Notes: generated by a model from the sequence alone, not told the origin. A DNA stretch of 64,000 nucleotides from Candidatus Uhrbacteria bacterium (GCA_018673485.1 JABHCP010000002.1:1502-65501), one strand, 5' to 3'; counted from the stretch's first letter, positions 4,631 through 50,758 are shown. Translations and numbers: made by a program.

Positions 4631-4736
4631 ATGTATTAGTCTTGAGAGGGTCTCCCTGACTTGCTGGCAAGCAGGTCCTAGACGTCGAGATGGGAATTAA
4701 TGCTAACCATTTCGAACGGAGTGAGAAATCTTCTAA
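4631..4736. repeat. intergenic hairpin repeat module (family B copy 1)
   Basis: Shares gcaggtcctagRcgtcgagatgg and ttcgaa...gagaaatcttc modules with copies at 13321-13493, 40203-40318, 50655-50758. Confidence 0.6.
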
Positions 4737-5711
4737 TTATATCAACTTAACTTTAACTCTCTTGAGAGCGGCCCTTGTTGGCCACTTGTTCAATATTCCA
4801 ATTTTTGCACCATATGACTGAATCACTGACTCCGCGTTTAACATCCCGACCTTGAGCGCCTCATCGATTCCCATTCCTTTTGCAAGCGCTGAAACTAGCC
4901 CTGATCCGAATGAATCTCCAGCACCAGTGCGTGATATCGCTTTCTTGCCTTGCGGTCTGATATACCAAGTTGTTCCATCCAGGTGAGCATATGCGCCATT
5001 TGGGCCATCTGTGATTATCACAGTGAGCCCGGGGAGCGCTAACTTCTCGCAAAGCTCTTTAATACTGGATTTATTATCTTTGGTGAGCTCTCGAGCTTCC
5101 TCAGTATTTAGATTAAACAGTGTTAGATGTTTCATGATCGGGAGCAGTTCCTTTAGTCCCTTGCTAAGCTCTCCGCCTCCAGGATTAAAGGCGATCAGTG
5201 TTTTGTTTTTGCGAGCTTCTTTTACAACTTTTAGAGCGAGCGATGTATTACCTGCCAGAGATGTAATATAGAGCCATTTTGATTTTAGCTTTTTAAGCGG
5301 TACGTCTTTGATTTGGAATTCGCTAGAAACACCACGATGAACGAGCGCACTGCGCTCTCCATTTTTTGCAGTTAGCAAAACACTATAACCAGTTGTACCT
5401 TTTTTGATTTTGTTAACGAGAGTTGTTTTGACGTTGAACTTTTTTAGATCATTGATCACTGACTCGGCAGCATCGTCGTCACCAACTCTGGTAATGACTG
5501 CGGTATTAAATCCAAGTGATGCAAATGTCGCAGCTGAGTTTGTTCCACCTCCACCAGTAGTTCTTACCACAGTCTCGACATCGATTTTACTTCCAAACGG
5601 AACGCACTCACCAACACCTGTTGAGAATTTGTCAGAATTAATAAGCTGAAAATTCTTTGATGCCAAGAAAACATCTCGAGTAGCTGATCCAATTGTTATG
5701 ATGTCGTACAT
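4737..5711 (-). CDS. PfkB-family carbohydrate kinase (ribokinase-like)
   Basis: N-terminal GGGGTNSAATFASLG and C-terminal GAGDSFGSGLVSALAKG signatures of the PfkB/ribokinase family. Confidence 0.85.
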   Translation of the reverse strand: MYDIITIGSATRDVFLASKNFQLINSDKFSTGVGECVPFGSKIDVETVVRTTGGGGTNSAATFASLGFNTAVITRVGDDDAAESVINDLKKFNVKTTLVNKIKKGTTGYSVLLTAKNGERSALVHRGVSSEFQIKDVPLKKLKSKWLYITSLAGNTSLALKVVKEARKNKTLIAFNPGGGELSKGLKELLPIMKHLTLFNLNTEEARELTKDNKSSIKELCEKLALPGLTVIITDGPNGAYAHLDGTTWYIRPQGKKAISRTGAGDSFGSGLVSALAKGMGIDEALKVGMLNAESVIQSYGAKIGILNKWPTRAALKRVKVKLI

Positions 5712-5719
5712 ATAATTTT

Positions 5720-5799
5720 GTCATTCCTGGCCCCGACCAGGAATCTATCATTTATCGAATTTGATATTCGATGGTTCCCGGATCGGGGTCCGGGATGAC
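5720..5799. repeat. compound hairpin repeat element (family A copy 1): GTCATYCC-hairpin-GGRATCYATCRTTTATC ... GGGATGAC
   Basis: Near-identical cores at 12311-12399 and 23954-24080. Confidence 0.65.
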
Positions 5800-5800
5800 A

Positions 5801-6631
5801 CTAAGCCTCGTGCTTTTCCCAAAGCTTAATGAAGTATAGATAGTTTTTCGCAATTTTCTCTACTGCTTGCTTGCGTGTAATTTTTTTATCTTTGAATTGC
5901 TCAAGCGGTTTGTAGAATATGGTGCGACCAATTGCAAACCCACTAACTACACCGGACTTTGCCGCTGCGATAATCCAGTCTTCTACCTTTGCTTTGCTTG
6001 CCCCCCGACCCAATATAACTAAGTCGCTTTTTGCAACTTTGTATATCTCTTTCCATTGTTTTGCATATGGTAGGCCTTCGAGCTTCCATACATCAGGGTC
6101 AGAACCTGCTTTTTTCATTTCTATAATCGCTTTTCTCATTTGTTTGAAACGAGACCCCTTACCTGTCATTAGTGGCTCATTCAGCCATTTTTGATCATGA
6201 TTCTTACACCAGTCATTAAGTCTTTTAAGTCGCGCATTCTGAATCTTATTGGCTTCTTTTTGACTTACGTCATATCGGACAAGTGCTTTTGCGTATGTAG
6301 GTTTCATTTCTTTAAGATGCTTTCCAAATCCGTTACCATATTTAAATTGAAAGAATAGCTGTCCACTTTGTTCTACTGACATGGCAAATGGAATCATCTG
6401 CTTTTGGCACGCTTTTATGACGTGAGAACCAAATTCTTCATCAATAAGAATGCCCATGTCCTCTGAATGCTCGTATTGATTATGAGCTAGCATAAAACCG
6501 TCAAAAACTACGCTTTTCATTTTACTAACCTCACGAAGTTGAGCGGCTGTTTTTACAGGGTATTTAAAGCCTAGGAGCTTTTCTGCAAATGTTGAACGAT
6601 GATCAAATGGCAAAATAAATAGTCGATCCAT
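5801..6631 (-). CDS. class I aldolase-fold protein (DhnA/FbaB-like or DUF2090-like)
   Basis: C-terminal GFAIGRTIF resembles the GRNxFQ motif of DhnA-type class I aldolases; immediately adjacent to the PfkB kinase. Confidence 0.45.
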   Translation of the reverse strand: MDRLFILPFDHRSTFAEKLLGFKYPVKTAAQLREVSKMKSVVFDGFMLAHNQYEHSEDMGILIDEEFGSHVIKACQKQMIPFAMSVEQSGQLFFQFKYGNGFGKHLKEMKPTYAKALVRYDVSQKEANKIQNARLKRLNDWCKNHDQKWLNEPLMTGKGSRFKQMRKAIIEMKKAGSDPDVWKLEGLPYAKQWKEIYKVAKSDLVILGRGASKAKVEDWIIAAAKSGVVSGFAIGRTIFYKPLEQFKDKKITRKQAVEKIAKNYLYFIKLWEKHEA

Positions 6632-6649
6632 ATGTCCCCATTATAGCAT

Positions 6650-7210: not shown

Positions 7211-7283
7211 ATGTTGATGCGTGAGTTGAGTTTTGTTGATGTATTATAGCTCGAACACACTAAATGCGCTAAAATGTATTCAT

Positions 7284-8522
7284 ATGAATAAAAAACTATC
7301 GATTAGTATAATTATTGTAGTAGGCGTTATCGTCGTCATAGGTCTTTTCATTACAGCTCGGTCTTTGTCGCAGAATCAATATATAGACGATGAGGTTTAT
7401 GTTCCACAGGAGTATCAAGACGTTGAGCTTGGCAATGATTACTCTGGACCAATTAAATATGATGATTCTACGCTTGTGTATGGTGCTGACGCACCAGTGT
7501 ACGTGACGATTTACTCGCACAATGAAGATTCATGGTCGTCACTTGTAAATACACCTGAGCATTATGAAGAATATCGCACTGGATTAATCGAGCGTGCTGA
7601 GTTATTAGCTGAGTATGGTATTGAATGGAACTGGCAGTCCGACCAACCAGTTATAGAAGCTATGATTGAGTATGAAGATGATGGTTGGCTCAAGGCGCTT
7701 CCCGGAGGTCTCAATGTGCTTGAATATTTAGAAACACTTGGCGCGCACTTTGATCCGCATGCTCATTCTAATAATTATGCAGACATAGCGTATCTTATTG
7801 AGCAGCTTGGTGTTAAGGCGACAGGAATTATTGGTGGAACAGTTCTGATAAAATGTGGTACTGAGCATTTAGGATTTTTAAATTTAGATAGCTGGTATGA
7901 CAATGTTGGCATTGAGAGCGATGGTTATGTTTACGGAAGTGACTATCCATTAGCAAAATGGAAGCCAGAAATTCTTTCAGACCCCGGAATGGGTGGGCAT
8001 TATTATGATGAATGGAGCTCGGGAGTTTGGAGGCCAGGTGATGAGGACAAGTTTTATATTAATTTTCCAGACAATGACATTGTATATATTGGGGAAGGGT
8101 ATCCGCACGATGCAACCGTGATAGGTGCCGAGCATGCAAGTGGGGCGGAAGTTCATTCAGAAGATGGCCAGTATATTAAGGACTTGGTAGGTAAGATTGA
8201 AGATGGAGATGTGCCTACGGGTACATCCGATGGTGAGAAATTCATGTATACCGCATCTATTCATATGCGCGATACTGACGTTGTGAGTCATGAAGATTCA
8301 ACTGTTAACACTGTTGAGGGGATCCAGTCTGTCCTTGATGAGCTTATGCCTTTGGTGGATTCAGGTCAGATAATATTCGTTGATTACGAGACAGCGGCGG
8401 AGATCTGGGAGACTGAATATAGTGAAGTTCCGTACCGATATGACTTGTTCGAGTTTAAGTTTTACAAAGCAGTTCGTGATCAGGCAGAAGGTCAATGTGA
8501 GGAGATGGCACCGAGTCGCTAA
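7284..8522 (+). CDS. hypothetical exported protein (membrane-anchored)
   Basis: Likely true start MNKKLSIS at 7284 inside ORF 7233-8522; N-terminal TM, large acidic extracytoplasmic domain; terminator follows. Confidence 0.55.
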   Translation: MNKKLSISIIIVVGVIVVIGLFITARSLSQNQYIDDEVYVPQEYQDVELGNDYSGPIKYDDSTLVYGADAPVYVTIYSHNEDSWSSLVNTPEHYEEYRTGLIERAELLAEYGIEWNWQSDQPVIEAMIEYEDDGWLKALPGGLNVLEYLETLGAHFDPHAHSNNYADIAYLIEQLGVKATGIIGGTVLIKCGTEHLGFLNLDSWYDNVGIESDGYVYGSDYPLAKWKPEILSDPGMGGHYYDEWSSGVWRPGDEDKFYINFPDNDIVYIGEGYPHDATVIGAEHASGAEVHSEDGQYIKDLVGKIEDGDVPTGTSDGEKFMYTASIHMRDTDVVSHEDSTVNTVEGIQSVLDELMPLVDSGQIIFVDYETAAEIWETEYSEVPYRYDLFEFKFYKAVRDQAEGQCEEMAPSR

Positions 8523-8539
8523 GTTTCACAGAAATAGAA

Positions 8540-8563
8540 AACCCCGCAATCGCGGGGTTTTCT
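8540..8563. terminator. Rho-independent terminator aaaaCCCCGCaatcGCGGGGtttt
   Basis: Perfect 6 bp GC stem flanked by A4/T4. Confidence 0.7.
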
Positions 8564-8579
8564 TGATCCCAGGGTATGT

Positions 8580-8655
8580 TGGTGGATCCGACGGGAGTCG
8601 AACCCGCATCCTCTGGTGACAAGCAAGATGAGGTTACCATTACCTCTACGGACCC
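8580..8655 (-). tRNA. tRNA, probably Thr (anticodon TGT)
   Basis: RC GGGTCCGTAGAGGTAATGGTAACCTCATCTTGCTTGTCACCAGAGGATGCGGGTTCGACTCCCGTCGGATCCACCA; good acceptor, D and T arms; anticodon arm has one mismatch and C37, so the isotype call is tentative. Confidence 0.6.
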
Positions 8656-10261: not shown

Positions 10262-10395
10262 GAGGTCGATGGCATTGAGGGGATTTAAAAACCACCCATC
10301 CCGACGATAGGAGGGATCCCGTGCGCAGCCGATTAAACGTTGGGCTATCTACGGGATTCCTCACTCCGTTCGGAATGGGTGGTTTATTTTTTTTG
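10262..10395. repeat. hairpin repeat module (family D copy 1) with outer inverted repeat aaaccacccatcc / ggaatgggtggttt and T-run
   Basis: Core ggatcccgtgcgYagccgatYtaacgt shared with 22283-22395; catcccgacg-taRggagggatc shared with 50672-50700. Confidence 0.6.
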
Positions 10396-10410
10396 AACTG
10401 CCTACTGCTC

Positions 10411-11385: not shown

Positions 11386-12294
11386 TTATTTTCGATATTT
11401 TCGGTAAATCCATCGTCCACCAAAGAACAGGATAAGAATTGGAATTATTGCAGCGCCACCGACTATCGCAAGTTCAATGACTCCTAGAACAAGACCTTGA
11501 AATAGGCGGATTACGGTTTGCGCTGAGTCCTTAATGGTTTGCAATGGGCGAAATTCGTCAGAACCCAATGTGATGGACGTTGCCTGTTCCAAGTAAATGC
11601 TGATCGTTGAGTAGCTGGTGGCACCTTGGTAGTGCTCAAGCTGTGCTTCGTAACGTTCGATCTCTTCACGAACATTTGAAAGATAGTATTGAACATTTAA
11701 AATATCCTCAACAGTTGTTGCTTGGTTTAATACTGACACGTACGCTACCTCTTCTGCTTGAGAATTAGAAAGACGTGCTTGAATATCAATAACTTGCTCA
11801 GTTACATCATCTGCGTTTACATTTTCTGATGTCACTGATTGAGCGATGTCCTTAATCGAATTCATAGCCGAATCGAATTGAGATTCCTCGACTTTCAGCT
11901 CAATGTCACCATAGGTGTAATCACCGCGTGAATAAATGTATCGATTTGTAACCGTTCCATTGTATTGAGTAGCGATTGCTGATAGTTGATCTGCGGCTGT
12001 ATTAATATCCTCTACTATCAACTCAACGTCACCGGTTTTGATTACGTATTGTTCCTCCTCAGCGATATCATATGCATCTTCGTCGTAATACATATCATCT
12101 GATTCAAAATCACCATATGATCCAAGGTCATCAAACGATCTAGAAACCTGTGATAGGGCGGAGCTTTCTACTGTGAATGTTCCAGTTGAGTCATTAGCGA
12201 TATCTACGGAGTTAAGTAGAAGGCTGAAGAAAAATAGAATCACTATAATGATCGCAAGAATCGAAAGGCGTTTTTTTGTCATCGATATATTCAT
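11386..12294 (-). CDS. membrane protein with N- and C-terminal TM helices (DUF4349-like)
   Basis: 302 aa; TM helices at both ends, acidic middle with a coiled-coil-like region; inserted between the two transketolase halves. Confidence 0.5.
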   Translation of the reverse strand: MNISMTKKRLSILAIIIVILFFFSLLLNSVDIANDSTGTFTVESSALSQVSRSFDDLGSYGDFESDDMYYDEDAYDIAEEEQYVIKTGDVELIVEDINTAADQLSAIATQYNGTVTNRYIYSRGDYTYGDIELKVEESQFDSAMNSIKDIAQSVTSENVNADDVTEQVIDIQARLSNSQAEEVAYVSVLNQATTVEDILNVQYYLSNVREEIERYEAQLEHYQGATSYSTISIYLEQATSITLGSDEFRPLQTIKDSAQTVIRLFQGLVLGVIELAIVGGAAIIPILILFFGGRWIYRKYRK

Positions 12295-12310: not shown

Positions 12311-12399
12311 GTCATCCCTAGCTACGACCAGGGATCCATCGTTTATCGGATTGAATTTAGTTTACTGTAATGATGGGTTCCTGCTTTCGCAGGAATGAC
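12311..12399. repeat. compound hairpin repeat element (family A copy 2)
   Basis: gtcatccctagctacgaccagggatccatcgtttatcgga ... atgatgggttcctgctttcgcaggaatgac. Confidence 0.65.
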
Positions 12400-12412: not shown

Positions 12413-13291
12413 TTATTCACCAGCTTTGATTTTGCCATTTAAAGTTCGTAGTGCAGTAAGTGCTCGTTTGAGCTCTGCTTTATCCTTTGGTGGTTTACCG
12501 TGCCATATTGGTTCGAACTCCATGAAGTCAACGCCTTTTCCAGGGGTTGTGTGAGCGATGATCACGCATGGTTGCTCGTAAATTGATTGAGCGTATGCGC
12601 AAGCATCAACTATCTCACGAATGTTGTGCCCATCGACTTCAATCACGTGAAAATTAAACGCTTCAAACTTATCAACGAGTGGTTCAAGCGGCATGATATC
12701 CTCTGTGTAGCCGTCTATCTGAATATTATTGCGATCAATAATCCAGGTCATATTGTGTAATGTGTTGCGTCCGGCGAAAAGTGCGGCTTCCCAGGTTATT
12801 CCGGCTTGCAGCTCTCCATCTGACATAACGCAATACGTATGCCATGGTAGTTTTTCTTGTTTTGCAATGTAGGCGAGTCCTGCGGCCTGCGGTGATCCGT
12901 CACCGAGTGGTCCGGATGTACTTTCAAGACCAGGTAGGTGGGTCATTTCCGGGTGACCTTGCAGGCGTGAGCCAAATTGACGCAGAGTCGCGAGCTCACT
13001 CTTAGGAAAGTACCCGGCGTGCGCCATTGCTGTGTATCGGATTGGTACAGTATGCCCGCATGAAAGAATGAGCCGATCACGGTCTTTCATGTTTGGCTTT
13101 TTAGGGTTATGCACCAGGACGTGAAAATAAAGTGCTGTAAAAATATCAGCAAGTCCAAGGGGGCCAGCTGAATGTCCACTGCCAGCTGCCTCGAGCATTG
13201 TTAAAAGATCAACGCGAATGTCTCGCGCTCTTTTTTCAAGTGCGAAGAGTTTCTTTTCTGATAGTTGTTTAATGTCACGTACTGGGGGCAT
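12413..13291 (-). CDS. transketolase, N-terminal subunit (TPP-binding)
   Basis: GHSAGPLGLADIFTALYFHV TPP-binding signature. Confidence 0.9.
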   Translation of the reverse strand: MPPVRDIKQLSEKKLFALEKRARDIRVDLLTMLEAAGSGHSAGPLGLADIFTALYFHVLVHNPKKPNMKDRDRLILSCGHTVPIRYTAMAHAGYFPKSELATLRQFGSRLQGHPEMTHLPGLESTSGPLGDGSPQAAGLAYIAKQEKLPWHTYCVMSDGELQAGITWEAALFAGRNTLHNMTWIIDRNNIQIDGYTEDIMPLEPLVDKFEAFNFHVIEVDGHNIREIVDACAYAQSIYEQPCVIIAHTTPGKGVDFMEFEPIWHGKPPKDKAELKRALTALRTLNGKIKAGE

Positions 13292-13320: not shown

Positions 13321-13493
13321 AGTATCCTTTTTTGTCATCCTGAACAAAGTGAAGGATCTACTCATCGAGCTCAGCTCGACTCAAGAAGATTTCTCTCTAC
13401 GTTCGAAATGGGAAATTAATTTTCATCTCAACGCATCGGAGAGGTCCTCTCAATCTAGTTGATCCTTCGCGGAGCCTCAGGATGATAATTTAT
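13321..13493. repeat. composite intergenic repeat (family B copy 2, plus ccttcgcRgagcctcaggatga module)
   Basis: ctcaagaagatttctctctacgttcgaaatgg shared with 50700-50735 and 40240-40262; gatccttcgcggagcctcaggatgat shared with 25640-25668. Confidence 0.6.
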
Positions 13494-13904: not shown

Positions 13905-14012
13905 ATGTGTTTATTATATCGCAGGTAGTAGGAAGTAGGAAGTAGAAAATAGAACACAAAAAGTCTCGATCGCTCGAGACTTTTTACTTTAACTATAAAC
14001 TTTGACCTTTAT

Positions 14013-16506: not shown

Positions 16507-16626
16507 ATAGATTTGTTCATTCTCATTCTACCATTTTTGTGTTTTTTTACTGAAAGCGTAAACCCTACACCAGTCGGTGTAGGGCGCGGCCCTGCGAGTT
16601 GTACGAGGGGAGGGCGAGAGATGGGA

Positions 16627-17058
16627 TCATTGGATCATGGTGGGGTCGAGTTCTGCGCCTTCGGGCCACATGGCCTCGGGTGGCAGGTCGGTCAGGCCGA
16701 ACTTGTCAGGATCGCCGAAGAAGATGGAGAATTTGATCTGCAGATCGCCGTTGCGTACAGTGAGGTCATGCATCCCTTCCGATGGTCGTAGTGAGCGCAT
16801 CTGGTTGTCATGCAAAGGGATGCCCATGTGCGTGAGGGTTCGATCGCAGAGATCGTTTGGCGTGCTGAGCGTCCCAGCGACATTTCCACAGATCAAGCCG
16901 ATGGTGATCTCGACTGGGCCCATCACACGTTCGATGAAGTCGGGGTGGACACCGTTGATCGTCATCTTGTTGTTGAGCCTGATGATGGATGGGTCGCGTT
17001 CATCTACGTCGTAGTACACACGGTGACCACGATATTGAATGAGCAGTGCGTTTGCCAT
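16627..17058 (-). CDS. GC-rich small protein, paralog A of a tandem triplet (unknown function)
   Basis: Over 60% GC; alignable to 17695-18129 (LLIQYRGH / LLVVRSGH, VAGTL / IAGTL, FGLTDLP / YGLRGYNLEP). Confidence 0.5.
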   Translation of the reverse strand: MANALLIQYRGHRVYYDVDERDPSIIRLNNKMTINGVHPDFIERVMGPVEITIGLICGNVAGTLSTPNDLCDRTLTHMGIPLHDNQMRSLRPSEGMHDLTVRNGDLQIKFSIFFGDPDKFGLTDLPPEAMWPEGAELDPTMIQ

Positions 17059-17185
17059 GCGGGTCTCCGAGGTGGGGGTTGAGGACTATATTGACGTTAG
17101 CAATGATGATGATTCGCGTCAATAAAGTGTAAGCCCCGCAGCCGACTGTGTCGGCGCGGGGTAGTGAGGTGGTCGTGAAGCGCAT

Positions 17186-17554
17186 CTAGCGACCGAACTG
17201 GATCAGGGTCGGTGGTGCTCCAGTTGCGCTGACGTAGTAGTGAAGGACGAGTTCGTGATCTTCACGAATCAACCGAAGCTCATGCACACCACTACTTGGG
17301 TAGGTTGTGGCCTGTGTGGTGCGGCTTCCATTGAAGAAGGCGCGGATGTCGCCACGGATAGCGAATACGATTCGCTCCGCTTGCGGTGTCACGATGATCC
17401 ACGTATTGCCCATCAGCGCGCTCACGAAGTCTGCTTGGGCGCCGCGCACATCCATATGGCTATCAAAGACCATTTCATCGTCTTCGTAGCGAGGGTTGAT
17501 GGGATAGAAGAGCCCATCGAGGACTCGTCCTAACATGAAGATGGGGAGTGCCAT
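17186..17554 (-). CDS. GC-rich small protein, paralog B of a tandem triplet
   Basis: Strong RBS aaggagagacaac; HELRLIREDHELVLHYY aligns to HRLKIIRGDQEVELCLEY of paralog C. Confidence 0.5.
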   Translation of the reverse strand: MALPIFMLGRVLDGLFYPINPRYEDDEMVFDSHMDVRGAQADFVSALMGNTWIIVTPQAERIVFAIRGDIRAFFNGSRTTQATTYPSSGVHELRLIREDHELVLHYYVSATGAPPTLIQFGR

Positions 17555-17694
17555 GTTGTCTCTCCTTGCCTTTTGGCGTTGAGGTTGGCTAAATAGAGTA
17601 GTACTTTTTTACAAATATGTCAACCCAACCTGAAAGCAGTGAGCCCCGCAGCCGATCGTATCGGTGCGGGGCAGGGCGAGCTCACGAGGGCGCG

Positions 17695-18129
17695 TTAGGC
17701 GCCGAGGCGTGGAGGTTTGTTGGGGGTGGGTCTGGTCAGTCGTGGTGTCACGGGTTCCAGGTTGTAGCCGCGCAGGCCGTAGTTGTACTCGAGGCAGAGC
17801 TCAACCTCCTGGTCACCACGGATGATCTTGAGGCGGTGTTGCGAGTGGTCTGGCCCCAAGACGATGCCAGTGCACCACCGGCCATGGACCCTCACTTCAA
17901 TCTCGTTGACACGCAGAGTGCCCGCGATCGCCAGTCGGAAGCTATCATCTTGTTGATCTGGGATGAGCCGGATGACCAGGTCGCCTAGGACATCTTGGAT
18001 CTTGCGAATCGGGATCATGTGGATACTCATCCGCTTGTCGATGACGAAGTGGCCATCATCTTTGTTTCGTTGCAGGCGAGCCTTGCTGTGTCCGCTTCGG
18101 ACTACGAGTAGTGGTTTTGCGTAACTCAT
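17695..18129 (-). CDS. GC-rich small protein, paralog C of a tandem triplet
   Basis: Followed by hairpin agccccgcagccgatcgtatcggtgcgggg, near-identical to the hairpin after paralog B. Confidence 0.5.
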   Translation of the reverse strand: MSYAKPLLVVRSGHSKARLQRNKDDGHFVIDKRMSIHMIPIRKIQDVLGDLVIRLIPDQQDDSFRLAIAGTLRVNEIEVRVHGRWCTGIVLGPDHSQHRLKIIRGDQEVELCLEYNYGLRGYNLEPVTPRLTRPTPNKPPRLGA

Positions 18130-18391
18130 TCGAACTCTCTTTGCCCATTTAGGGCTGCTGGGGTCGTCAGAAAGGTAACAGTTTCAGCGCCAAAGGTCAA
18201 TCATTATGGTAACTTCGATAATACTGTATCGTCTAGTTAGATATGAAGTCGCAAATCATTATTAATCAGATTATTATTACGCCCTAACAAGCGCAGGACT
18301 TTCGATATCATAGATTATAATAAAGAAACCCTGCGCAGAGCAGGGATTTTTGCTTGATCTAAGCCCGATTCATTGATAATATTACAGCATT

Positions 18392-21274: not shown

Positions 21275-21300
21275 GTTGAATTATCATTATTAGTTGTGAA

Positions 21301-21338
21301 AACGTATAATGTCCCGATCGGGACATTATACGTTTTGT
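21301..21338. terminator. 17 bp perfect palindromic hairpin aaaacgtataatgtccc-gatc-gggacattatacgtttt (ileS terminator)
   Basis: Perfect stem, 4 nt loop, immediately 3' of ileS. Confidence 0.65.
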
Positions 21339-21358: not shown

Positions 21359-21423
21359 AGCTTAGCCAAAACAGCTTAGCCATTTGGGCTAAGCCTGAAT
21401 GGCTAAGCTGTTTTGGCTAAGCT
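21359..21423. promoter_or_regulatory. iteron-like inverted repeat: four copies of AGCTTAGCC in 25 bp perfect inverted arms overlapping the -35 of the downstream gene
   Basis: agcttagccaaaacagcttagccat ... atggctaagctgttttggctaagct; a TAAAAT -10 lies 16 nt after TTGGCT. Confidence 0.55.
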
Positions 21424-22282: not shown

Positions 22283-22395
22283 ACCATCCAGAGGAGCCTA
22301 AAGGCGACGAAGGATCCCGTGCGTAGCCGATCTAACGTAGACGTAAACATCGGGACTCCTCGCAGGACCCTGAGTGGGTGGTAGAAGCAGGCCCC
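22283..22395. repeat. hairpin repeat module (family D copy 2)
   Basis: ggatcccgtgcgtagccgatctaacgt core shared with 10290-10320. Confidence 0.55.
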
Positions 22396-22741
22396 TAAGG
22401 GCTTGTTTTGTTTTGGGTAATTTGTTATTATTTTGCAGCTGCGTACATTCGGTGCGTACAAACTTCATCTTTTGAGGCTGCCATGAGCGACAACTTCCTG
22501 ATCATCTTCATTTAGTCGCCCTCGCGCGACACACTTACGCAACACTGACCGTTTCTATATTGGTCAGTCTACGCCCGGTCTTCTTGATCTGGGCGTTTGT
22601 GGTTTTGCGAAATATAGAACCCAGACGAGATACTTAAGTCCCCCTCCTTTTTAAGGAGGGGTTAGGGGTGGTTATAAGATAGTTTCAATATCTGTGTTCT
22701 GTAGTCTGGGTTCTGTCTTCTGCATGTTGTATACTGTAATC

Positions 22742-23935
22742 ATGTTCGATAAAATCGAAAATAAGAAACGAAAGGAGACGTATCCATTTTTGGAATGGAT
22801 GGATCGTTTTGTGCTTACTGAGGAGAATTTGCGACAAGCAAGAGACGTTATGTATGAGCTTGAAGCTCAAGTGAGCGAGCTCTCACAGGTTCATAGGACT
22901 CCACAGTCAGCAAACCATCACGCAGAAGGTCCGATGATGACCAATCATATCGAGAATATGATTGCTGGTATTTTTGCGATTTGTGAAGGTAAGGTCTCAC
23001 TATCGCAAATTGAAGAATTTGCCCGCGAGAAGCATTTTAAAAATGAAATCGCAGAGTTGGAAGACGTAATTTGTGAAAATGCGGCAACGCTTAAGGCGTT
23101 TACGATGCTTCACGACATTGCCAAGTACGATACAATTTCGTTTAGCTCACCAGCGGGGTCAAAGGGTGCCGCTGAGGGTTTTTCCAAAGATTCACGACTG
23201 GATAAGAGCGCTTTAATCGATCGATATTTGAAATTGCTCAATGCATTTAAAGTTGATCTTCCTGATCTTGATTCTCGGCAAGTAGCGATAGACTTTTATA
23301 AAGAGTTTGAGATTAAGGTTCACTACAAGGGGCATGCAAAAGTTGCTGTATCGGATAAATATGAAGAAGTGCGCAATACCGTTGAAGATTTGTGTAGGTT
23401 AACTGCACGTGACCGCGAGATTTTAGCGCTTACAATCAAGTATCACATTGAGGTGATGGATTTTATTGGTGATAAACCTGATGGAGCTCGCTATTCATAT
23501 TTGCAACGCGTAGGGCAAAGGTCAGGAATCGATGGAAATGATTTATTAGATGTCCAAACCGCGGCCCTATTGCTCGATGCATTAATTGGAAGTATTGGAT
23601 ATCAGGATGGTGCGCTTGTGCCTGACATAGAGCTTGTATTGAACATGTTGCGTTCCGAGGAGCTTGCGGTTGTAGAGCGAAGACATGCGAGGGTCAAAAA
23701 GATCGAGAATAAAAAGCAAAGTGAGTTTAAGAAAATGTTAGAGAGCGTTGGGCTTGGCGGTGGTGATGTTTTTAAACTGTTAGATATTCCATTTGGCCCA
23801 GGGCGTGCTGGTATCATCGATAAGGTGCAAAATGCCGTCAAGACAGGTGATTTGTCTGAGCTGGGAGAGTATAAAGATAAGCTGTATTCCAAGGTTCAGC
23901 AGGCGCATTTGCTGTATGCCACCTCGATGGAGTAA
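22742..23935 (+). CDS. HD-domain hypothetical protein
   Basis: ANHHAEG ... TMLHDIAKYD ... HYKGHAK ... D pattern of HD phosphohydrolases; start moved to MFDKIENKK because the upstream portion overlaps a repeat element. Confidence 0.55.
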   Translation: MFDKIENKKRKETYPFLEWMDRFVLTEENLRQARDVMYELEAQVSELSQVHRTPQSANHHAEGPMMTNHIENMIAGIFAICEGKVSLSQIEEFAREKHFKNEIAELEDVICENAATLKAFTMLHDIAKYDTISFSSPAGSKGAAEGFSKDSRLDKSALIDRYLKLLNAFKVDLPDLDSRQVAIDFYKEFEIKVHYKGHAKVAVSDKYEEVRNTVEDLCRLTARDREILALTIKYHIEVMDFIGDKPDGARYSYLQRVGQRSGIDGNDLLDVQTAALLLDALIGSIGYQDGALVPDIELVLNMLRSEELAVVERRHARVKKIENKKQSEFKKMLESVGLGGGDVFKLLDIPFGPGRAGIIDKVQNAVKTGDLSELGEYKDKLYSKVQQAHLLYATSME

Positions 23936-23953
23936 GATGTCCTTACTTACCCT

Positions 23954-24080
23954 GTCATTCCCGACTCCGATCGGGAATCCATCGTTTATCAAATTCGACG
24001 AACTCACAGTAATGATGGGTCCCCCGCCTACCGGCAGGCAGGCTGCTTTCGACCCGTCTGACGGGTTTCGCAGGGATGAC
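23954..24080. repeat. compound hairpin repeat element (family A copy 3, with extra internal hairpins)
   Basis: gtcattcccgactccgatcgggaatccatcgtttatcaaat ... atgatgggtcc ... gcagggatgac. Confidence 0.65.
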
Positions 24081-24092
24081 ACATGAACAATT

Positions 24093-24635
24093 ATGATTGC
24101 ATATTTAGAAGGAACAATCCGATCAGTGGCGCTCGACACGTGCGTTGTTTTTGTGAGTGGTGTTGGTTATAGAGTTTTTTATATGGGTTGTTCACCACAG
24201 ATTGGTGAGCTCGTGAGCTGGCATATTTATGATCATATTCGTGAAGATAGAAGAGAGTTGTTTGCTGCACCGGAGCTATCGATACTGGATTTATTTCAGA
24301 AGCTAATTGACATTAGCGGCGTTGGACCACGTTTAGCGCAGAAGATTCTTGTTTCGGCTAATCCTGAGCAGATTCAAGATAGGATCCTAAAGGAGGACCT
24401 AGCATTTCTTACAAGTATTTCAGGAGTCGGTAAGAAGACAGCTCAAAAGATCATTCTTGAGTTCAAGGGCGTTTTGGTAAAAGAAGATGCTGTTCATGAG
24501 GATGATACTAACGTGATCGAGGCGCTTGTTAGTTTGGGCTACGCTCGCCGTGAGGCAATCGAGATATCGCGACAAGTTGAGGGCGAGACAATCGAGGATA
24601 AGATACGCCACGCATTAAAGATGTTTTCAAATTAA
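24093..24635 (+). CDS. ruvA: Holliday junction DNA helicase RuvA
   Basis: MIAYLEGTI start, HhH region ISGVGPRLAQKIL. Confidence 0.9.
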   Translation: MIAYLEGTIRSVALDTCVVFVSGVGYRVFYMGCSPQIGELVSWHIYDHIREDRRELFAAPELSILDLFQKLIDISGVGPRLAQKILVSANPEQIQDRILKEDLAFLTSISGVGKKTAQKIILEFKGVLVKEDAVHEDDTNVIEALVSLGYARREAIEISRQVEGETIEDKIRHALKMFSN

Positions 24636-24637
24636 TT

Positions 24638-25585: not shown

Positions 25586-25699
25586 TTCATTTGTCATCCA
25601 ATAGTTGTTATTCTGAGGTCGAAGACCAAAGAGTCCACTAGTAGATCCTTCGCAGAGCCTCAGGATGACAGAGGGGATAAATAAGACCTATAGGGCATG

Positions 25700-33657: not shown

Positions 33658-33767
33658 CCCACCTTGCTGGGCAGACAATCGTAAACCCCACGGATTCGTT
33701 CCGCGGGGTCTTGTGCTTTAAATTTTTCACTTTTGTCCCGATCGGTCCATAAGTGAAAAATTATGGA

Positions 33768-34982
33768 TTATGATGATGGTTCGAGTGCTTTGATTGCCAT
33801 TAGTGTCCGACGGGCTGCGGCGTCCCAGGAGAAGATTCCTGGAATGTGGGCGCCGACTTCGTGTTCGTGTTTTAATCCTACGTCGATTGCGTGAACTAGA
33901 TCGTTTACATTGAATGGGTCGACGTATGTTACGTGCTCTTTTCCAACTTCTTGCATGGATCCAGTGAAGCTTGTTACTACATGTGTACCGCTGGCTATTG
34001 CCTCGACTATCGGTAAGCCGAAGCCTTCAAAAAATGATGGAAATAGGAACAGTTCGGCGTGCCTATAAAGTGTTGGTTTGTGTTTTTCTGGAATGTATCC
34101 AAGAACGTGAATATCATTTGTGTATTTTGAATTTTTGATGCGTTTGTGAAGATTATCATTCTTCCAACCTCGTCCGCCTGCAATCACTAGGTGCGGGACG
34201 GCAACCCCCTCCAGCTCCCCCTTGGGAAGGGGGAGGGTTGAAGCACGCCACTTTTCGTACGCTTCGACGATTGTCTCTATATTTTTGCGTGGTTCAAGAG
34301 TGCATAGACTTAAAATATATGGAAATTCAATATCGTGTTGTTTTAAATTGTTTGTGTCACAGGCTTGCTCTTTTGCTTTGAATCGATCATCTACTCCAAG
34401 TGGTGTAGTAACCATTCGATCCTCACCAACGCCCCACAAGGCGTTTAAGTTTTGCTTTGTGTTTTCTGACACTGTAAGAACGAGCTCTGCATGCTCGGCC
34501 AAATATCGTGGTCGTGCAGCTTTGTGCCAAATTCTATCTTTGACACGAAAGAAACTTGGAAAGAGCTCAAAGGAAAGGTCGTGCATGGTGATTACGTAGG
34601 GACGGTGCGTTTTGATGATGTTTATATTTGGGAAAAACCATAGATCTGGTTTTTCTGGTAAAAAATCTTCCAGTGTATGCGCTGTGAAATGAAGTTTTGC
34701 TGAAAGCGCACGATTGGGCATTTCGTGCTTAACGATTGTAATATTCTTTCCTGAAAACTTTGGAAGCTTAGAAAGTGTTTCCGGTGCTCCTGATGCAAAA
34801 AGAGTAAAACGATCATCCGGCGCAATTTTCGCCATGCGTTTTATAATTTCAATCGTGTACCGACCAATACCTGAATGTTGATCGGTCGTTAGATGTCGAA
34901 TGTCGATGGCGAGGTGCATGGATCTAATGATTAAGTGTTTAAGTTGTTTAAGGTGTTTATTCGAAATAAACATTTTAGACAT
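33768..34982 (-). CDS. glycosyltransferase family 4
   Basis: EGFGLPIVEAIASGTHVVTS motif. Confidence 0.85.
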   Translation of the reverse strand: MSKMFISNKHLKQLKHLIIRSMHLAIDIRHLTTDQHSGIGRYTIEIIKRMAKIAPDDRFTLFASGAPETLSKLPKFSGKNITIVKHEMPNRALSAKLHFTAHTLEDFLPEKPDLWFFPNINIIKTHRPYVITMHDLSFELFPSFFRVKDRIWHKAARPRYLAEHAELVLTVSENTKQNLNALWGVGEDRMVTTPLGVDDRFKAKEQACDTNNLKQHDIEFPYILSLCTLEPRKNIETIVEAYEKWRASTLPLPKGELEGVAVPHLVIAGGRGWKNDNLHKRIKNSKYTNDIHVLGYIPEKHKPTLYRHAELFLFPSFFEGFGLPIVEAIASGTHVVTSFTGSMQEVGKEHVTYVDPFNVNDLVHAIDVGLKHEHEVGAHIPGIFSWDAAARRTLMAIKALEPSS

Positions 34983-34991
34983 TTCATCAAT

Positions 34992-36107
34992 TTAAACAAT
35001 TCCCAAGACTTTCTTTCTGTGCTCTTCCCATTTATTTTGCACGTAGTCATGCATTTGTTTGTGATAGATTTGCGTTGAGAATTGCTTGGCGAATTCTCGA
35101 ATCTCCATTGGATCAAATTTTGTATGGTCAAAATGCAAAACCGTGTTTGCGATCTCTTCCCAATGTTGTTTGTCAAAAAATACTCCAGTTTTTCTATCGA
35201 TCACAGTTTCTGTCGCCCCACCTTTTCGGTAAGCGATCACTGGTCGGCCGGCTGCCATGGACTCAACTGGTGTAATTCCAAAGTCTTCTTCTTGAGGGTG
35301 CAAAAAAGCAATAGCGTCTTGAAAGAGTCGCGCCCGTTCCTCGTTAGAAACTCGACCCAAGAATTGAACATTGTCTCCTGCTCGCGCTCTTAAGTCTTTT
35401 TCGATTGGTCCAGAGCCAAAAACCTTAAGTGGTATACCAAGTTTTGTAAAAGCATCGATTACAAGGTCGTAGCGCTTGTATGGTACTAAGCGACCGCCAA
35501 TAAGATAATATTCTTTTGGAGTGTCAGTGACGCTGAACTGATCCACTTCAACGGGTGGGTGAATTACATCACTATCACGTCGATAGTATTTTTGTATTCT
35601 CCGTTTTACTGTTTCGGAGTTAGCGACAAAGAAATCAACACGATCAGCGGCGAGTCGGTCCCAGTTACGCAGGATACTCAGGATCGGGGGAAGAAGTTTT
35701 TTTATAGCTCTTGGAACTTTGAGCTCTTCAGTGTAGCTGTGAGTGTCTGACCACAGGTATCGTGTTGGTGTGTGACAGTAACAAATATGAAGAGCATCGC
35801 TTGATGGAATGACACCTTTAGAAAAAGCGCTGGTGCTTGAAACGATTACATCAAACTCTGAAAGGTCGTAGCTTTCAGTTGCTGTCGGCATGAGTGGTAA
35901 TAGCCAGCGAGAGCGTTTAAGCGCTCCAGGAATTTTTTGTAAAAAGCTGGTACGAATATCGCGATGCCCAAAGGAGGTGTCCATGATCGTTTTATCGTAT
36001 AACAGTGTAAAGGTTGGTGCGTTTGGCCAAATATTCTGCATGGCCTCAAGCACACGCTCAGCGCCACCGTTTTGGGTTAGATGATCATGTACTAAAGCTA
36101 CCTTCAT
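34992..36107 (-). CDS. glycosyltransferase family 4
   Basis: EDFGITPVESMAAGRPVIAYRKGG motif; start placed at MKVALVHDH. Confidence 0.8.
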   Translation of the reverse strand: MKVALVHDHLTQNGGAERVLEAMQNIWPNAPTFTLLYDKTIMDTSFGHRDIRTSFLQKIPGALKRSRWLLPLMPTATESYDLSEFDVIVSSTSAFSKGVIPSSDALHICYCHTPTRYLWSDTHSYTEELKVPRAIKKLLPPILSILRNWDRLAADRVDFFVANSETVKRRIQKYYRRDSDVIHPPVEVDQFSVTDTPKEYYLIGGRLVPYKRYDLVIDAFTKLGIPLKVFGSGPIEKDLRARAGDNVQFLGRVSNEERARLFQDAIAFLHPQEEDFGITPVESMAAGRPVIAYRKGGATETVIDRKTGVFFDKQHWEEIANTVLHFDHTKFDPMEIREFAKQFSTQIYHKQMHDYVQNKWEEHRKKVLGIV

Positions 36108-37614: not shown

Positions 37615-37711
37615 AGTGTTCTAATTATAGCGCAGAAGGTAGAAGGTAGAAAGTAGAAGGTAGTGTCAAAACTAAAACTACATTCTACATTCTACTCTCT
37701 ACATTCTATTT

Positions 37712-38185: not shown

Positions 38186-38362
38186 GGCAAACGATACCAT
38201 GATTAGCGCAGAATGTCAATGGGGGCAGACGTCAGAACCCAGACGTCAGACTACAGTTTAGTGTTATGACTGGATTCTGACGTCTGTATTCTGGGTTCTG
38301 TAAAAACAGTGATCCCCCGGACGTGGTCCGGGGGATAAGTGGGTCGTAGGGCTCGAGCCGTG

Positions 38363-38866: not shown

Positions 38867-39129
38867 GTGGCAAACTCCTGGGGGAGATATCCGGGTTTCT
38901 GTTTCAGCTTGAGGGCTGCATGGAAGCCAGGCGCAGGTTGCACTTGACCAGAAAAATATAGCAGTGTTGGCGAAGAATGTCAATGAGGACGGTAGAAGAC
39001 GTCAGATGTCAGACTTCAGAACCCAGTTTAAGGTGCTGATGATATGGTCGGTAGGGGTTGTGAATAAAACAAAAGAACCGGTACATGCCGGTTCTAATAT
39101 GGGTTCTGAAGTCTGTATTCTGGGTTCTG

Positions 39130-40110
39130 TTACAATACTACTCCAATCTTTTTCTTCACCTCTACCAACTTTGCTGTTGCTATTTTTTCTGCTGCTACAG
39201 ATCCATTTGCGATGATTCGTTTAAGCTCATCTTTATTCTCTAGTAGCTCTTTCATCTTAGCCTGAATTGGGTCCAGATAGTCACTTAGTGCTGTGGCAAG
39301 GTCGTCCTTGAGATTCTTCATTCCACCTTCGGCGTATTCATGCGCTAGGTCTTCACCTGACTTTCCAGTGCACAAGCTAAATATTGTCAGTAGGTTATAT
39401 AGTCCTTCGCGGCGTTCCTCAAATGTAATTATTTGCTCCGAGTCAGTCACGGCTGATCTGATCTTTTTGTGAACAATCTCGCGCTCGTCCATTAATGAGA
39501 TGTAGCTCTTGGCACTTGCCGCGCTTTTACTCATCTTTTTCTCAGGCTCAGTTAAGGACTTTAATCGGGCGCCGTGCTTTCTAATTATTGGCTTTGGTAT
39601 TACAAATGTTTCACCAAATGTTTTATTGAATCTTTGCCCTATGTCGCGCGTTATCTCAACATGCTGTTTTTGATCATGACCGACAGGCACACCCTCAGCA
39701 TCATATAAAAGAATGTCAGACGCCATCAGAATAGGGTAGGTGAACAAGCCAACAGAAACTGCATCTGCTTTGTCGCCTGATTTATCCTTGAATTGTGTCA
39801 TGCGCTTCATCTCACCCATGTGCGTTTGCGATTGCATGATCCAAGCAAGCTCCGTGTGAGCGCTGATTTGTGATTGTTGGAAGAGTACTGTCTTTGTTGG
39901 ATTGATTCCAGCGGCGAGATAAGCAGCTGCATTGAGCAAGATGCTCTCACTTAGTGTCTCAGGATTCTGAGGTACAGTAATCGAATGATAGTCCGCAATC
40001 ATTATGTAGAGCTCGTGTTCGTCTTGGAGTTCGACAGCAGGAATTAGGGCACCAAATAAGTTGCCGATGTGCAGAACGTTTGTTGGTTGTATTCCAGTTA
40101 GGACGCGCAT
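39130..40110 (-). CDS. trpS: tryptophanyl-tRNA synthetase
   Basis: HIGH-like (NVLHIGNLFGA) and KMSKS motifs. Confidence 0.9.
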   Translation of the reverse strand: MRVLTGIQPTNVLHIGNLFGALIPAVELQDEHELYIMIADYHSITVPQNPETLSESILLNAAAYLAAGINPTKTVLFQQSQISAHTELAWIMQSQTHMGEMKRMTQFKDKSGDKADAVSVGLFTYPILMASDILLYDAEGVPVGHDQKQHVEITRDIGQRFNKTFGETFVIPKPIIRKHGARLKSLTEPEKKMSKSAASAKSYISLMDEREIVHKKIRSAVTDSEQIITFEERREGLYNLLTIFSLCTGKSGEDLAHEYAEGGMKNLKDDLATALSDYLDPIQAKMKELLENKDELKRIIANGSVAAEKIATAKLVEVKKKIGVVL

Positions 40111-40202: not shown

Positions 40203-40318
40203 AAAACCCCATACTTTCACCATTTCGAGCAGAACGAGGAATCTTCTTGAGAAGATCTCTCTGCCTGCCGGTAGGCAGGTCCTAGGCGTCGAGATGGTGA
40301 GGGTTAGTGGGGTTTTGT
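40203..40318. repeat. MITE-like repeat (family B copy 3) bounded by 9 bp inverted repeat caaaacccc / ggggttttg
   Basis: Internal ggaatcttcttgagaagatctctc and gcaggtcctaggcgtcgagatgg modules shared with other copies. Confidence 0.6.
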
Positions 40319-46160: not shown

Positions 46161-46247
46161 TGGCTGAATAGAAAGTATAAAGTACAAAGTTTAAAGTAGA
46201 TTTTAGAACCGGCGTATGTCGGTTCTTTTGGTCGTCACCCCAGAGCC

Positions 46248-49220: not shown

Positions 49221-49255
49221 AACATTCAAAAGGATCTACCACAGGTAGGTCCTTT

Positions 49256-50074
49256 TTGGTAAACTGTTTTCATATGAATGAATTTGAACAAGGACGACCG
49301 CCTCAAGACTTAATTGAGGTACAACCTGAGAATGAGAGCGTTAGAGAAAGACGTGATCTAATTTTTCAAATGTACGCCGATAAGTATACAAGGAAGCAGA
49401 CAGCAGACTTATTGCATATTGAGGTAGACGGAGAGCGTATTGATCAGAAGTTAAGTGCTAGTTCTGGAACGATCGTTGAGCGCGAGGTGGAAGATGGAAA
49501 GATAGGAATAGTAGAAACAGATACTGGAGCTATTTTAGATAGTGCTGGCGAGCTTCTTACAAATCGTGTTTCTGGATGTATGGTTGCTTTTGGAAAAGGG
49601 AAGTCACATGACGGAGAAGATAGAGTTGTTATGATTCATCTAACCCCAAATAGCAGATTGGGATGGGGTAATTATAGGCAGCAGGGATATGATGAGAGAT
49701 GGGGTGAGGATACGCGAGAAACAGCTGCAGAAAAAATTCATAATGCACTGCAAGAAGCTTCAGTTGATTTAAAGGGTATGGAAATTACTCTATTGCGAAC
49801 AACCGGCGCCAAAACAGCACATTACTATTACGGATTTAGCGAAGATAATATCGCAAAAAGAGTTACCGAATTCAAACAAGCCCTTGAACAGAAGGGTGTA
49901 AATGTTTTTGCGGATCACAGCATACCGATGGCTGAGATGTCTGTTTATTGGAACCCCGATGCACCTGAAGATTTGTACATTGTGGGCGAGCGCAAGATTC
50001 CAGATGGAGATGGCGTCAGAATGGCTGAGGGTGAAGAGAGGGGTATTGCTGAGCAGGTTATAAAATTAAATTAA
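49256..50074 (+). CDS. hypothetical protein
   Basis: 272 aa ORF with typical composition; no family recognised. Confidence 0.5.
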   Translation: MVNCFHMNEFEQGRPPQDLIEVQPENESVRERRDLIFQMYADKYTRKQTADLLHIEVDGERIDQKLSASSGTIVEREVEDGKIGIVETDTGAILDSAGELLTNRVSGCMVAFGKGKSHDGEDRVVMIHLTPNSRLGWGNYRQQGYDERWGEDTRETAAEKIHNALQEASVDLKGMEITLLRTTGAKTAHYYYGFSEDNIAKRVTEFKQALEQKGVNVFADHSIPMAEMSVYWNPDAPEDLYIVGERKIPDGDGVRMAEGEERGIAEQVIKLN

Positions 50075-50077
50075 TAT

Positions 50078-50644
50078 ATGAAAAAAGTATATTTATTGCA
50101 TGGTTGGGATGGGATTCCGATGGCTGGTATTAGGCCTTGGCTTAAGCAGCAGCTCGAAGCACAGGGGTGTCATGTGTTTATTCCAGAGCTTCCCGATTCG
50201 GGTGAGCCTAGGCCAGAAAAGTGGATGTCAGTTATTAAAGATTTAATTAGTGAGCCGGATGAGGATGTGGTTCTTGTCGGGCATAGTATGGGTGGGCAAG
50301 CAGCGCTTCGATATGTCGAGGGTCTTGGTGAAGGTCAGAAGATTGGCAAGCTTGCATTGATTGCACCAGTTATCGATAAGATCACTGGGCTTGAAGAGCC
50401 TGATGAGATCGAGATTGCTGATTCGTGGTTACAGAAACCGATGAATTGGCGAAAGATTAAAGATTCTGCGAATGAGATCGTGGGAATATTTTCTGACAAT
50501 GATCCATGGATTCCATTAAGTAGTTCAGACTTACTTAAAGAAAAGGTCGGCGCTGATATTATTATCGAGCATGAAAAGGAACATTGGGGTGACGATGAAG
50601 ATATAAAAGAATCGCAAGCTATCCTTGATGCGATTATTAAATAG
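50078..50644 (+). CDS. alpha/beta hydrolase, RBBP9/YdeN-like serine hydrolase
   Basis: GHSMGG nucleophile elbow; about 190 aa. Confidence 0.6.
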   Translation: MKKVYLLHGWDGIPMAGIRPWLKQQLEAQGCHVFIPELPDSGEPRPEKWMSVIKDLISEPDEDVVLVGHSMGGQAALRYVEGLGEGQKIGKLALIAPVIDKITGLEEPDEIEIADSWLQKPMNWRKIKDSANEIVGIFSDNDPWIPLSSSDLLKEKVGADIIIEHEKEHWGDDEDIKESQAILDAIIK

Positions 50645-50654
50645 TTAAAAACAA

Positions 50655-50758
50655 AAGAACCGCCACCACCTGTCACCATCCCGACGTAAGGAGGGATCTT
50701 CTTGAGAAGATTTCTCGCTACGCTCGAAATGGTTAGGGTGGGTAAGGGCGGTTCTTTT
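50655..50758. repeat. MITE-like repeat (family B/D hybrid, copy 4) bounded by 12 bp inverted repeat aaaagaaccgcc / ggcggttctttt
   Basis: Contains catcccgacgtaaggagggatc (D module) fused to cttcttgagaagatttctcgctacgctcgaaatgg (B module). Confidence 0.6.

Follow-up and report, generated by a model that had tools for sequence, protein, structure and literature searches.

How does a bacterial genome come to carry families of short hairpin repeats in its intergenic spaces, and to which kind of element do these repeats belong? Bacteria of the candidate phyla radiation (CPR, Patescibacteria) have tiny genomes that are not known to carry many repeats. A 64,000-nucleotide stretch of a Candidatus Uhrbacteria genome (GCA_018673485.1 JABHCP010000002.1:1502-65501; here called the window) was initially annotated as containing a mosaic of hairpin modules of about 100 bp. 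Analysis of the window, together with the ~11 kb that adjoin it in this genome (~75 kb together), leads us to suggest that the intergenic mosaic is built from one kind of unit, that the arms of two families, A and C, are hairpins of the class of Ssn-related motifs (SRM), and that the elements are spread and maintained through an Ssn-type protein. We assign a probability of about 0.6 to this explanation.

In Neisseria, the NTS repeat (CGTCATTCCCGCGMAVGCGGGAATCYRG), which includes dRS3 (ATTCCC-N8-GGGAAT), is bound and cut, solely as single-stranded DNA (ssDNA), by SsnA, a 94-amino-acid (aa) GIY-YIG protein of family cd10448. Three nucleotides (nt) upstream are decisive for cleavage, and the C directly after the palindrome is decisive for binding. 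In this organism NTS-class hairpins tag DNA for the ssDNA nuclease, which limits integration of transforming DNA, and SRM flank ssn genes in several phyla (PMC11893778, Chenal et al. 2025).

In a family-A element of the Uhrbacteria genome, the hairpin arm GTCATYCC-stem-loop-stem-GGRATC is separated by a palindromic spacer (..ATCGTTTATCGAATTCGATAG..) from its inverse, which ends in GGRATGAC. In six copies, GTCAT, the stem ends and the post-stem ATC are invariant, and the inner stem pairs covary (TGG/CCA, CGA/TCG, GGC/GCC, T..A/C..G). The invariant positions are those that are decisive for SsnA, and for this reason the A arms are read as members of the SRM class. They agree with the Neisseria NTS consensus at 20-23 of 28 positions (23 in the right arm of the element A2), and the published degenerate SRM pattern, HGTCWYN(0-2)YYVSBRHN(0-5)WNVSBRGN(0-2)RNCYNB, is matched twice in the window (right arm of A1, left arm of B4), compared to 0.22 matches in shuffled sequences. 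Judged by these features of the sequence, the A and C hairpins are members of the NTS/dRS3/SRM class, with a CPR bacterium as a new host and the repeats as new sub-families of a known element. Elements of the same build are also found in Sphingobium and Phocaeicola records.

In more general terms, the arms of A, B, C and D all fit one unit, the semipalindrome ATYYY-N6-14-RRRAT with a C after it; the head is GTC in A and C and NCC in B and D. Of the 17 occurrences of this unit in the window, 14 fall in the 12% that is intergenic; shuffled sequences contain 4.7 +/- 2.5, and unrelated genomes have 6.3 per 64 kb. In A, D1 and the composite of C and B, inverted ATYYY..RRRAT-C arms surround different inner modules, which is the arrangement that defines the Neisseria intergenic mosaic elements (NIMEs). 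The C arms (GTCATCCTGA..GAAGGATC) enclose a B core in two copies, in opposite orientation between the two. The B core is itself circularly permuted: its order is X-TCAA-Y in B3 and B4, but Y-loop-X in B1 and B2 as well as in the B1 orthologue of a related genome (locus L121) and in the copy just outside the window (locus L140; L-numbers denote loci used for comparison). The sharing of sub-modules that was proposed initially is confirmed: a B core resides within C1, mini-hairpins of A3 are common to B3 and to an A copy at locus L131, and E2 corresponds to E1 except for an insert in the loop. The right arms of A3 and L131 both carry a 15-nt mini-hairpin in the loop, with a duplicated TTTC on either side and with the insert GACCCGTCTGACGGG in common. 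B4 lies in the loop of a terminator, and E2 and A3/L131 carry inserts in their loops; insertion at the hairpin tip thus recurs across families, and we infer that it represents a mechanism.

A gene that could be associated with such hairpins is found in other CPR genomes. A protein search with an approximate Ssn-family sequence as query returned GIY-YIG proteins of ~95 aa with 82% identity, CPR members among them. The CPR proteins share the Y/Y/E spacing of SsnA, and no Uhrbacteria-named Ssn homologue was present among the top 120 matches. In Ca. Doudnabacteria (L143), a 95-aa GIY-YIG gene is located between the inverted hairpins TGTCATCCCCGACCTGATCGGGGATCCAG and CTGGATTCCCGCTTCCGCGGGAATGACA (..GGGAATGACA), and in another Patescibacteria genome (L146) a GIY-YIG gene, likewise encoding 95 aa, is found between the inverted hairpins TGTCATTCCCGCGTAGGCGGGAATCTAG and ..GAGGATGACA. 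These hairpins are close to the family-A arm type, the nearest being the A copy at locus L133. Because similar hairpins bracket the gene in both loci, family A is best read as a gene-less SRM-ssn-SRM unit, and it is plausible that the SRM-flanked GIY-YIG cassette is its gene-carrying counterpart; what is known of the protein is a nuclease activity rather than that of a transposase. A ComEC-type competence gene (L143:13492-14943) lies 3 kb from the flanked GIY-YIG gene in Ca. Doudnabacteria. It is noted here because Ssn is tied to transformation, and its proximity may be a coincidence.

The distribution of the elements was compared in relatives with the same gene order (including the syntenic loci L121, L122 and L125), where the transketolase-N protein is 81-82% identical to that of the window. 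A search for empty sites, suggested with the initial annotation, showed that the A1, A2, A3 and B1 sites are unoccupied in some relatives. The A1 site is empty in L121, L122 and L125; at the A2 site there is a gap of 18-20 nt in L122 and L125 and of 1 nt in L134; and at the A3 site L122, L134 and L136 have 12, 6 and 29 nt, respectively. B1 has an orthologous copy in L121, and in L122 and L125 the genes are separated by 1 nt or overlap. Taken together, the four sites are represented in L122 and L125 by gaps of 1-20 nt or by overlapping genes. The closest relative, L121, lacks A1, harbors E-like hairpins at the A2 site and retains B1; four E-like copies are found in L121 at sites other than that of E1. 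In related Candidatus Uhrbacteria of the same synteny, B1, D1, D-like and E elements are thus present, some of these at non-orthologous sites. Comparison of element junctions with empty sites did not reveal the target-site duplications that had also been suggested as a check, either at A1-A3, at the A copies of loci L127 and L131, at C1 or at the L140 copy; the only duplications seen are the TTGA that borders the B2 core at both ends within C1 and the TTTC around the mini-hairpin in the loop.

Where elements are shared, they are conserved above the level of the surrounding genes. D1 is 86-88% identical to its orthologues in L122 and L125, compared to 63-75% for the flanking genes and 33-47% for third codon positions. 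The orthologous A copies of L127 and L131 differ at five of the first 63 nt, and the flanking 1.2 kb are 73% identical; the loops of their right arms are unrelated. The arms are thus constrained and the loops are free, which suggests that the arms are recognized in a sequence-specific manner. Conservation above coding level is not the behavior of decaying selfish DNA.

The repeats themselves are statistically secure. All copies listed initially were recovered at the coordinates given or a few bases away from them. A self-BLAST check of the window yielded E values of 1e-5 to 1e-15, far beyond chance, and with nhmmer profiles, members of A, B, D2 and E were recovered with E values of 1e-16 to 1e-28. 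The profiles of C, B, D2, E and the box L did not match anywhere in a background set of 869 kb of unrelated genomes (nhmmer). The A profile gave weak matches there (E 6e-4 or worse), in a background that was itself selected through 119 chance matches to a family-A 17-mer (GGRATCYATCRTTTATC). The elements form long imperfect hairpins on both strands (z of -7 to -9 for A1, B3, B4, D1 and C1; B3, dG -66, z -9). Confinement of the copies to the window is refuted by the ~11 kb of flanking DNA, which holds four further copies, i.e., a second composite of C and B, two D2 copies and a single C arm. Some points of the initial description require revision. The terminal inverted repeats are the ends of palindromes that extend over the whole length of the element, and in the division into families, A, B, D and E stand, but the C arms (13334-13486 and 25593-25669), which had been merged into B, constitute a family of their own.

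The window contains 12 elements of 50-157 bp each, all of them intergenic, and most begin 1-20 nt past a stop codon. Together they account for 1,191 nt, i.e., 15.6% of the intergenic DNA, and occupy 12 of the 40 intergenic regions of at least 40 nt. The genes of the window are housekeeping genes (split transketolase, IleRS, RuvA, UvrA, RNase J, L19, glycosyltransferases), and proteins identical to those of the window were found on the NCBI metagenome-assembled genome GCA_018644925.1 and on a 368-kb JGI contig. The coordinates are collected in Table 1.

Table 1. Elements and other features of the window and of compared loci (window positions unless preceded by a locus number).
Feature	Position	Strand	Description
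A1	5720-5799		Inverted pair of GTCAT-headed SRM-like hairpin arms with palindromic spacer between them; neighbors, DUF2090-family gene (5801-6631, minus) and PfkB gene (4737-5711, minus)
A2	12311-12399		SRM-like inverted pair; between transketolase-N (12413-13291, minus) and DUF4349 (11386-12294, minus) genes
A3	23954-24080		SRM-like inverted pair, two nested mini-hairpins in right arm; neighbors, hypothetical gene (22694-23935, plus) and ruvA (24093-24635, plus)
C1 (B2 inside)	13334-13486		Outer arms GTCATCCTGA..GAAGGATC and inverse, around B core at 13384-13441
C2	25593-25669		C-type; right arm CTAGTAGATCCTTCGCAGAGCCTCAGGATGAC intact, left arm degenerate
B1	4636-4736		Permuted B form: GAAGATTTCTC..CGTTCGAAATGG, loop, CCATCTCGACG..GAGA; between PfkB and 2-hydroxyacid dehydrogenase genes
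B3	40203-40318		CCATCTCGACG..GAGATCTTC, TCAA, GAAGATTCCTC..CTCGAAATGG; outer stem AAAACCCCA../..TGGGGTTTT with T-runs; starts 13 nt past RNase J stop codon
B4	50653-50758		B element in loop of typical AGAACCGCC/GGCGGTTCT terminator; convergent genes on either side
D1	10288-10383		Arms CCCATCCCGACGATAGGAGGGATCC and diverged inverse around GC-rich hairpin; T-runs on both strands; downstream of transketolase-C
D2	22283-22383		Relative of D1; common core GGATCCCGTGCGTAGCCGAT
E1	22640-22689	+	Hairpin CCCCCTCCTT..AAGGAGGGG, then GGGGTGGTTATAAGATAG (extended -10-like); upstream of gene 22694-23935
E2	59198-59292	+	E hairpin with 45-nt palindromic insert in loop, then same tail TGGTTATAAT
Single SRM-like arm	51221-51249	-	CGTCATCCCGAGCGAAGCCGAGGGATC; in frame in N-terminal extension of ribosomal protein L19 ORF; 23/28 NTS positions
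Second C and B composite	L140:3638-3776		B core flipped relative to C1
Further D2 copies	L140:1333-1431; L140:5017-5112		
C-rich leaders and E-like hairpin sites	L121:633-795, 1675-1900, 7386-7420, 8396-8565; L136:8191-8293		
7-nt tandem arrays	13923-13945, 22691-22722, 37634-37708, 38226-38301, 38997-39130, 46172-46198, 59161-59191		
9-nt tandem arrays	34931-35001, 52048-52121		
Further 7-/9-nt-type arrays	L140:1825-1925; L121, past TktC stop		
Palindromes	21299-21336 (38 nt), 21359-21423 (65 nt)		Perfect or near-perfect; downstream of IleRS; absent there in L122 and L125
Hairpins of ..CCGATCGG.. type	2851-2890, 33721-33762		Similar to the palindromes downstream of IleRS
Small genes with shared flanks	16507-18391, 59300-61030		No Pfam match; near-identical regulatory flanks
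tRNA-Ile gene	54265-54341	-	Predicted by ARAGORN; anticodon TAT

According to the explanation that we favor, the arms would be recognized in single-stranded DNA by a nuclease of the Ssn type whose gene would lie in another part of the genome, and this recognition of ssDNA hairpins would allow the elements to spread and be kept at the DNA level. Family A, an inverted pair with a short spacer, would behave as a non-autonomous, MITE- or REPIN-like derivative of an SRM-ssn-SRM cassette (MITE, miniature inverted-repeat transposable element; REPIN, a doublet of repetitive extragenic palindromes, REP). B and D would represent a related, NCC-headed unit, and the enclosure of B by C, together with further hairpins placed in loops, would give the NIME-like mosaic. 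The repeats could mark incoming ssDNA for cleavage during uptake and recombination, as in Neisseria, and thereby modulate recombination.

A number of observations weigh against this explanation. A six-frame scan for the GIY-YIG motif found none in the window, in the ~11 kb flank or in the compared Uhrbacteria loci; no ssn gene was found in the ~75 kb examined, and the association of gene and repeat is seen in two other CPR genomes rather than in this one. Assignment of the CPR GIY-YIG proteins to cd10448, the Ssn family, is itself inferred from their size, Y/Y/E spacing and flanks. Owing to stems or loops that are 1-2 nt longer, five of the window's six A arms miss the strict SRM pattern. In the C arms, the GTCAT head and the GGATC tail are retained, with 5-bp stems and 11-12-nt loops; the B and D arms are without the GTC head; and it is by resemblance that C, B and D are placed in the SRM class. 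The copy number seen is low. The repeats had been described as genome-wide; this was checked in the ~11 kb flank, in syntenic relatives and in a scan of JGI metagenomes with a specific 37-nt family-A pattern, which gave just three more distinct family-A loci. Finally, conservation above coding level would equally fit a function at the RNA level.

This last point leads to an alternative in which the repeats are purely cis-acting RNA structures, i.e., terminators, 3' stabilizers or intercistronic processing signals that arose and diversified in place and resemble each other solely through selection for similar stems, with neither DNA mobility nor a dedicated protein. The intergenic position of all elements, most of them shortly after a stop codon, and the conservation of orthologous copies agree with such a function, and the initial suggestion that the repeats may double as terminators fits B3, B4 and D1. 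In these, a GC-rich outer stem with sense-strand T-runs follows directly on the stop codon, and they are probably also bidirectional intrinsic terminators or mRNA 3' stabilizers. The suggestion does not fit A1-A3, C1 and B1, which are found inside operons and have no T-run, so that mRNA must read through them. Moreover, the sequence-specific helix ends and flanks (GTCAT, ATC) are conserved while the stems covary, similar arms are found at non-orthologous sites and beside GIY-YIG genes in other phyla, sites are empty in relatives, and family A is present in both orientations relative to transcription. A purely cis-acting RNA origin is therefore unlikely in our view. Trans-acting small RNA genes or structured non-coding RNAs, which had also been proposed, are very improbable. 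The predicted folds are very stable and the E tail contains an extended -10-like box, but folding is equally good on both strands, the conserved positions are located in helices rather than in loops or junctions, and neither a promoter nor an orientation is seen consistently. At the gathering threshold, Rfam matched only RNase P RNA and four tRNAs in the window; no Rfam family was assigned to the repeats at this score, and extending the search to E values of 5 gave none either. A1 weakly resembles Wolbachia WsnRNA46 (26.1 bits compared to a threshold of 65.3; E 0.63), a match that would be explained by the reported richness of Wolbachia in SRM (PMC11893778).

Two known routes of DNA transposition must also be considered. 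The elements were initially likened to MITEs, and as classical cut-and-paste MITEs they would be moved by a DDE transposase acting in trans, provided by an insertion sequence with TGTCAT..ATGACA ends. Part of this likeness remains, i.e., the small size, the lack of coding capacity, the inverted hairpin termini of TG..CA type and the presence or absence of copies at orthologous sites. However, target-site duplications are lacking at all the junctions compared above, no transposase domain was found in the ~75 kb (Pfam results and existing annotations), and the sole gene found between such ends encodes a 95-aa GIY-YIG nuclease, which makes a cut-and-paste origin very doubtful. A REPIN-RAYT system, where the doublets are REPINs moved by a domesticated Y1 transposase of the IS200/IS605 type, would account for the inverted hairpin doublets, the conserved 5' head and the compensated stems, as well as for the extragenic location, the absence of duplications and the persistence at orthologous sites (all of which fit PMC3116915). 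Yet the arms carry the NTS/SRM-like head GTCAT instead of a GTAG-type REP head, the gene between A-like hairpins in CPR is GIY-YIG and not Y1_Tnp, and no Y1_Tnp is present in the Pfam results of window genes or in the annotations of the compared loci. We consider this system highly unlikely here.

Returning to the SRM-based explanation, the families without a GTC head deserve separate consideration. The B/D unit (NCC|ATYYC-GA(A)CG..GA-GRRAT|C) is conserved far above neighboring genes, occurs in two circular permutations and in both orientations, and is repeatedly found inside apical loops. For these reasons we tentatively raise the idea, which we regard as rather unlikely, that it is a second, undescribed recognition hairpin. 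If this were the case, the unit would point to a distinct enzyme specific for ssDNA hairpins (an Ssn protein of new specificity or a different protein) that would place palindromes at hairpin tips or preserve them there and so shape the recombination of incoming DNA in the obligately DNA-scavenging CPR bacteria. Family E, in which a hairpin resembling Shine-Dalgarno (SD) and anti-SD sequences is combined with an extended -10-like box, probably constitutes a module of its own that acts as promoter or terminator.

CPR bacteria depend on uptake of foreign DNA. The presence of NTS-class hairpins in about one-sixth of the intergenic DNA, conserved above coding level, suggests that a control of transformation similar to that of Neisseria may exist in this phylum, and an Ssn homologue together with an A arm offers a concrete, testable pairing. 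The repeats also create spurious small open reading frames (ORFs) and N-terminal extensions. An example is the L19 ORF, which begins with a 72-aa acidic extension (51096-51311, minus strand) where the in-frame SRM-like hairpin encodes ..AVIPSEAEGS..; the Pfam L19 domain spans just residues 78-174, and the NCBI gene call is shorter. The extension is an artefact of annotation, or else a repeat has inserted there in frame and is tolerated. In the literature, we found nothing on MITEs or REPs in CPR or on spurious peptides derived from repeats, and viral contigs that were scanned for A, box L and E gave no match. Repeats also appear to break metagenome assemblies: contigs from the same organism (L126, corresponding to window 22299-25431, and L130, 1782-1822) start or end inside D2 and an A copy.

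Other features of the intergenic DNA were noted during the analysis. In the A copies, B1 and B3, where neighboring genes are on the same strand, the antisense strand folds more stably than the sense strand by 3.5-13.6 kcal/mol, with more G-U pairs; the asymmetry is absent in D1, C1, D2 and E2 and may merely reflect strand composition. A 24-nt core of the palindromes downstream of IleRS, TAATGTCCCGATCGGGACATTA, is identical at a non-orthologous site (L125:9901-9924). A palindrome similar to HIP1 was considered for CCGATCGG and rejected, as it occurs only five times, four of these in hairpin loops. A likeness of CCGTCTGA in the mini-hairpin to the Neisseria DNA uptake sequence was dropped (three occurrences in the window, no over-represented k-mer), as was a likeness of the D arm (CCCATTCCGAAC..GTGA..CCGTAG) to 5S rRNA, for which Rfam gave no 5S match. 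The 7- and 9-nt tandem arrays are composed of units such as AGGAAGT, AGAAGGT, CAGACGT, AGTATGC and TTAAGTGTT, often as inverted pairs, and several are located immediately 5' of -10-like boxes; the arrays may bind proteins or take the place of a -35 box. The small genes with shared flanks have the hairpins GTRAGCCCCGCAGCCGA..TCGGYGCGGGG (17129, 17639) and ACCCTGAACC..TTCAGGGCGCGRCCGCAC (59315, 60185) and upstream blocks containing TTGACA (59689 and 60883), and look like paralogous transcription units. In relatives, C-rich leaders without an SD sequence (e.g., CCCTCTAAACCCCTTACCCCCTCTTTACCCTTCCTATG) are repeated directly 5' of the start codons of several genes, and the DUF4349 ORF call of L121 (351 aa compared to 302 aa in the window) extends through E-like hairpins.

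From the above discussion, the repeats may be placed relative to known systems. Bacterial MITEs (e.g., Correia elements) and the pneumococcal BOX share with them a length of ~100 bp, inverted termini, modularity, an intergenic position at gene ends and a possible role as terminators, but the elements described here are without target-site duplications or a DDE partner and their orthologues are conserved above coding level. The resemblance to REP/REPIN/BIME-RAYT systems (PMC3116915, PMC3337134) includes short hairpins paired into doublets that fold as one long hairpin, extragenic location, lack of target duplication, long persistence, a mosaic as in BIMEs (bacterial interspersed mosaic elements) and, presumably, recognition as ssDNA hairpins; the head sequence differs, and the protein associated in CPR is GIY-YIG instead of a Y1 transposase. 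In Neisseria NIMEs (PMC1797815), as here, short inverted dRS3-like repeats surround variable modules of 25-100 bp, which belong to many families, are mixed between copies and are intergenic. However, the Uhrbacteria units are single or nested, one per intergenic region, rather than arranged in long dRS3/RS arrays, and display nesting in loops and circular permutation of the B core. The NTS/dRS3/SRM and Ssn system (PMC11893778) differs in having stems and loops that are 1-2 nt shorter and in its hosts, and the arms described here form mainly tight inverted pairs around a conserved palindromic spacer, accompanied by a second, NCC-headed unit. With this system the elements share the GTC head, the ATTCCC..GGGAAT-type semipalindrome followed by C, the covarying stems, the intergenic location and, in L143 and L146, inverted copies on both sides of a small GIY-YIG gene.

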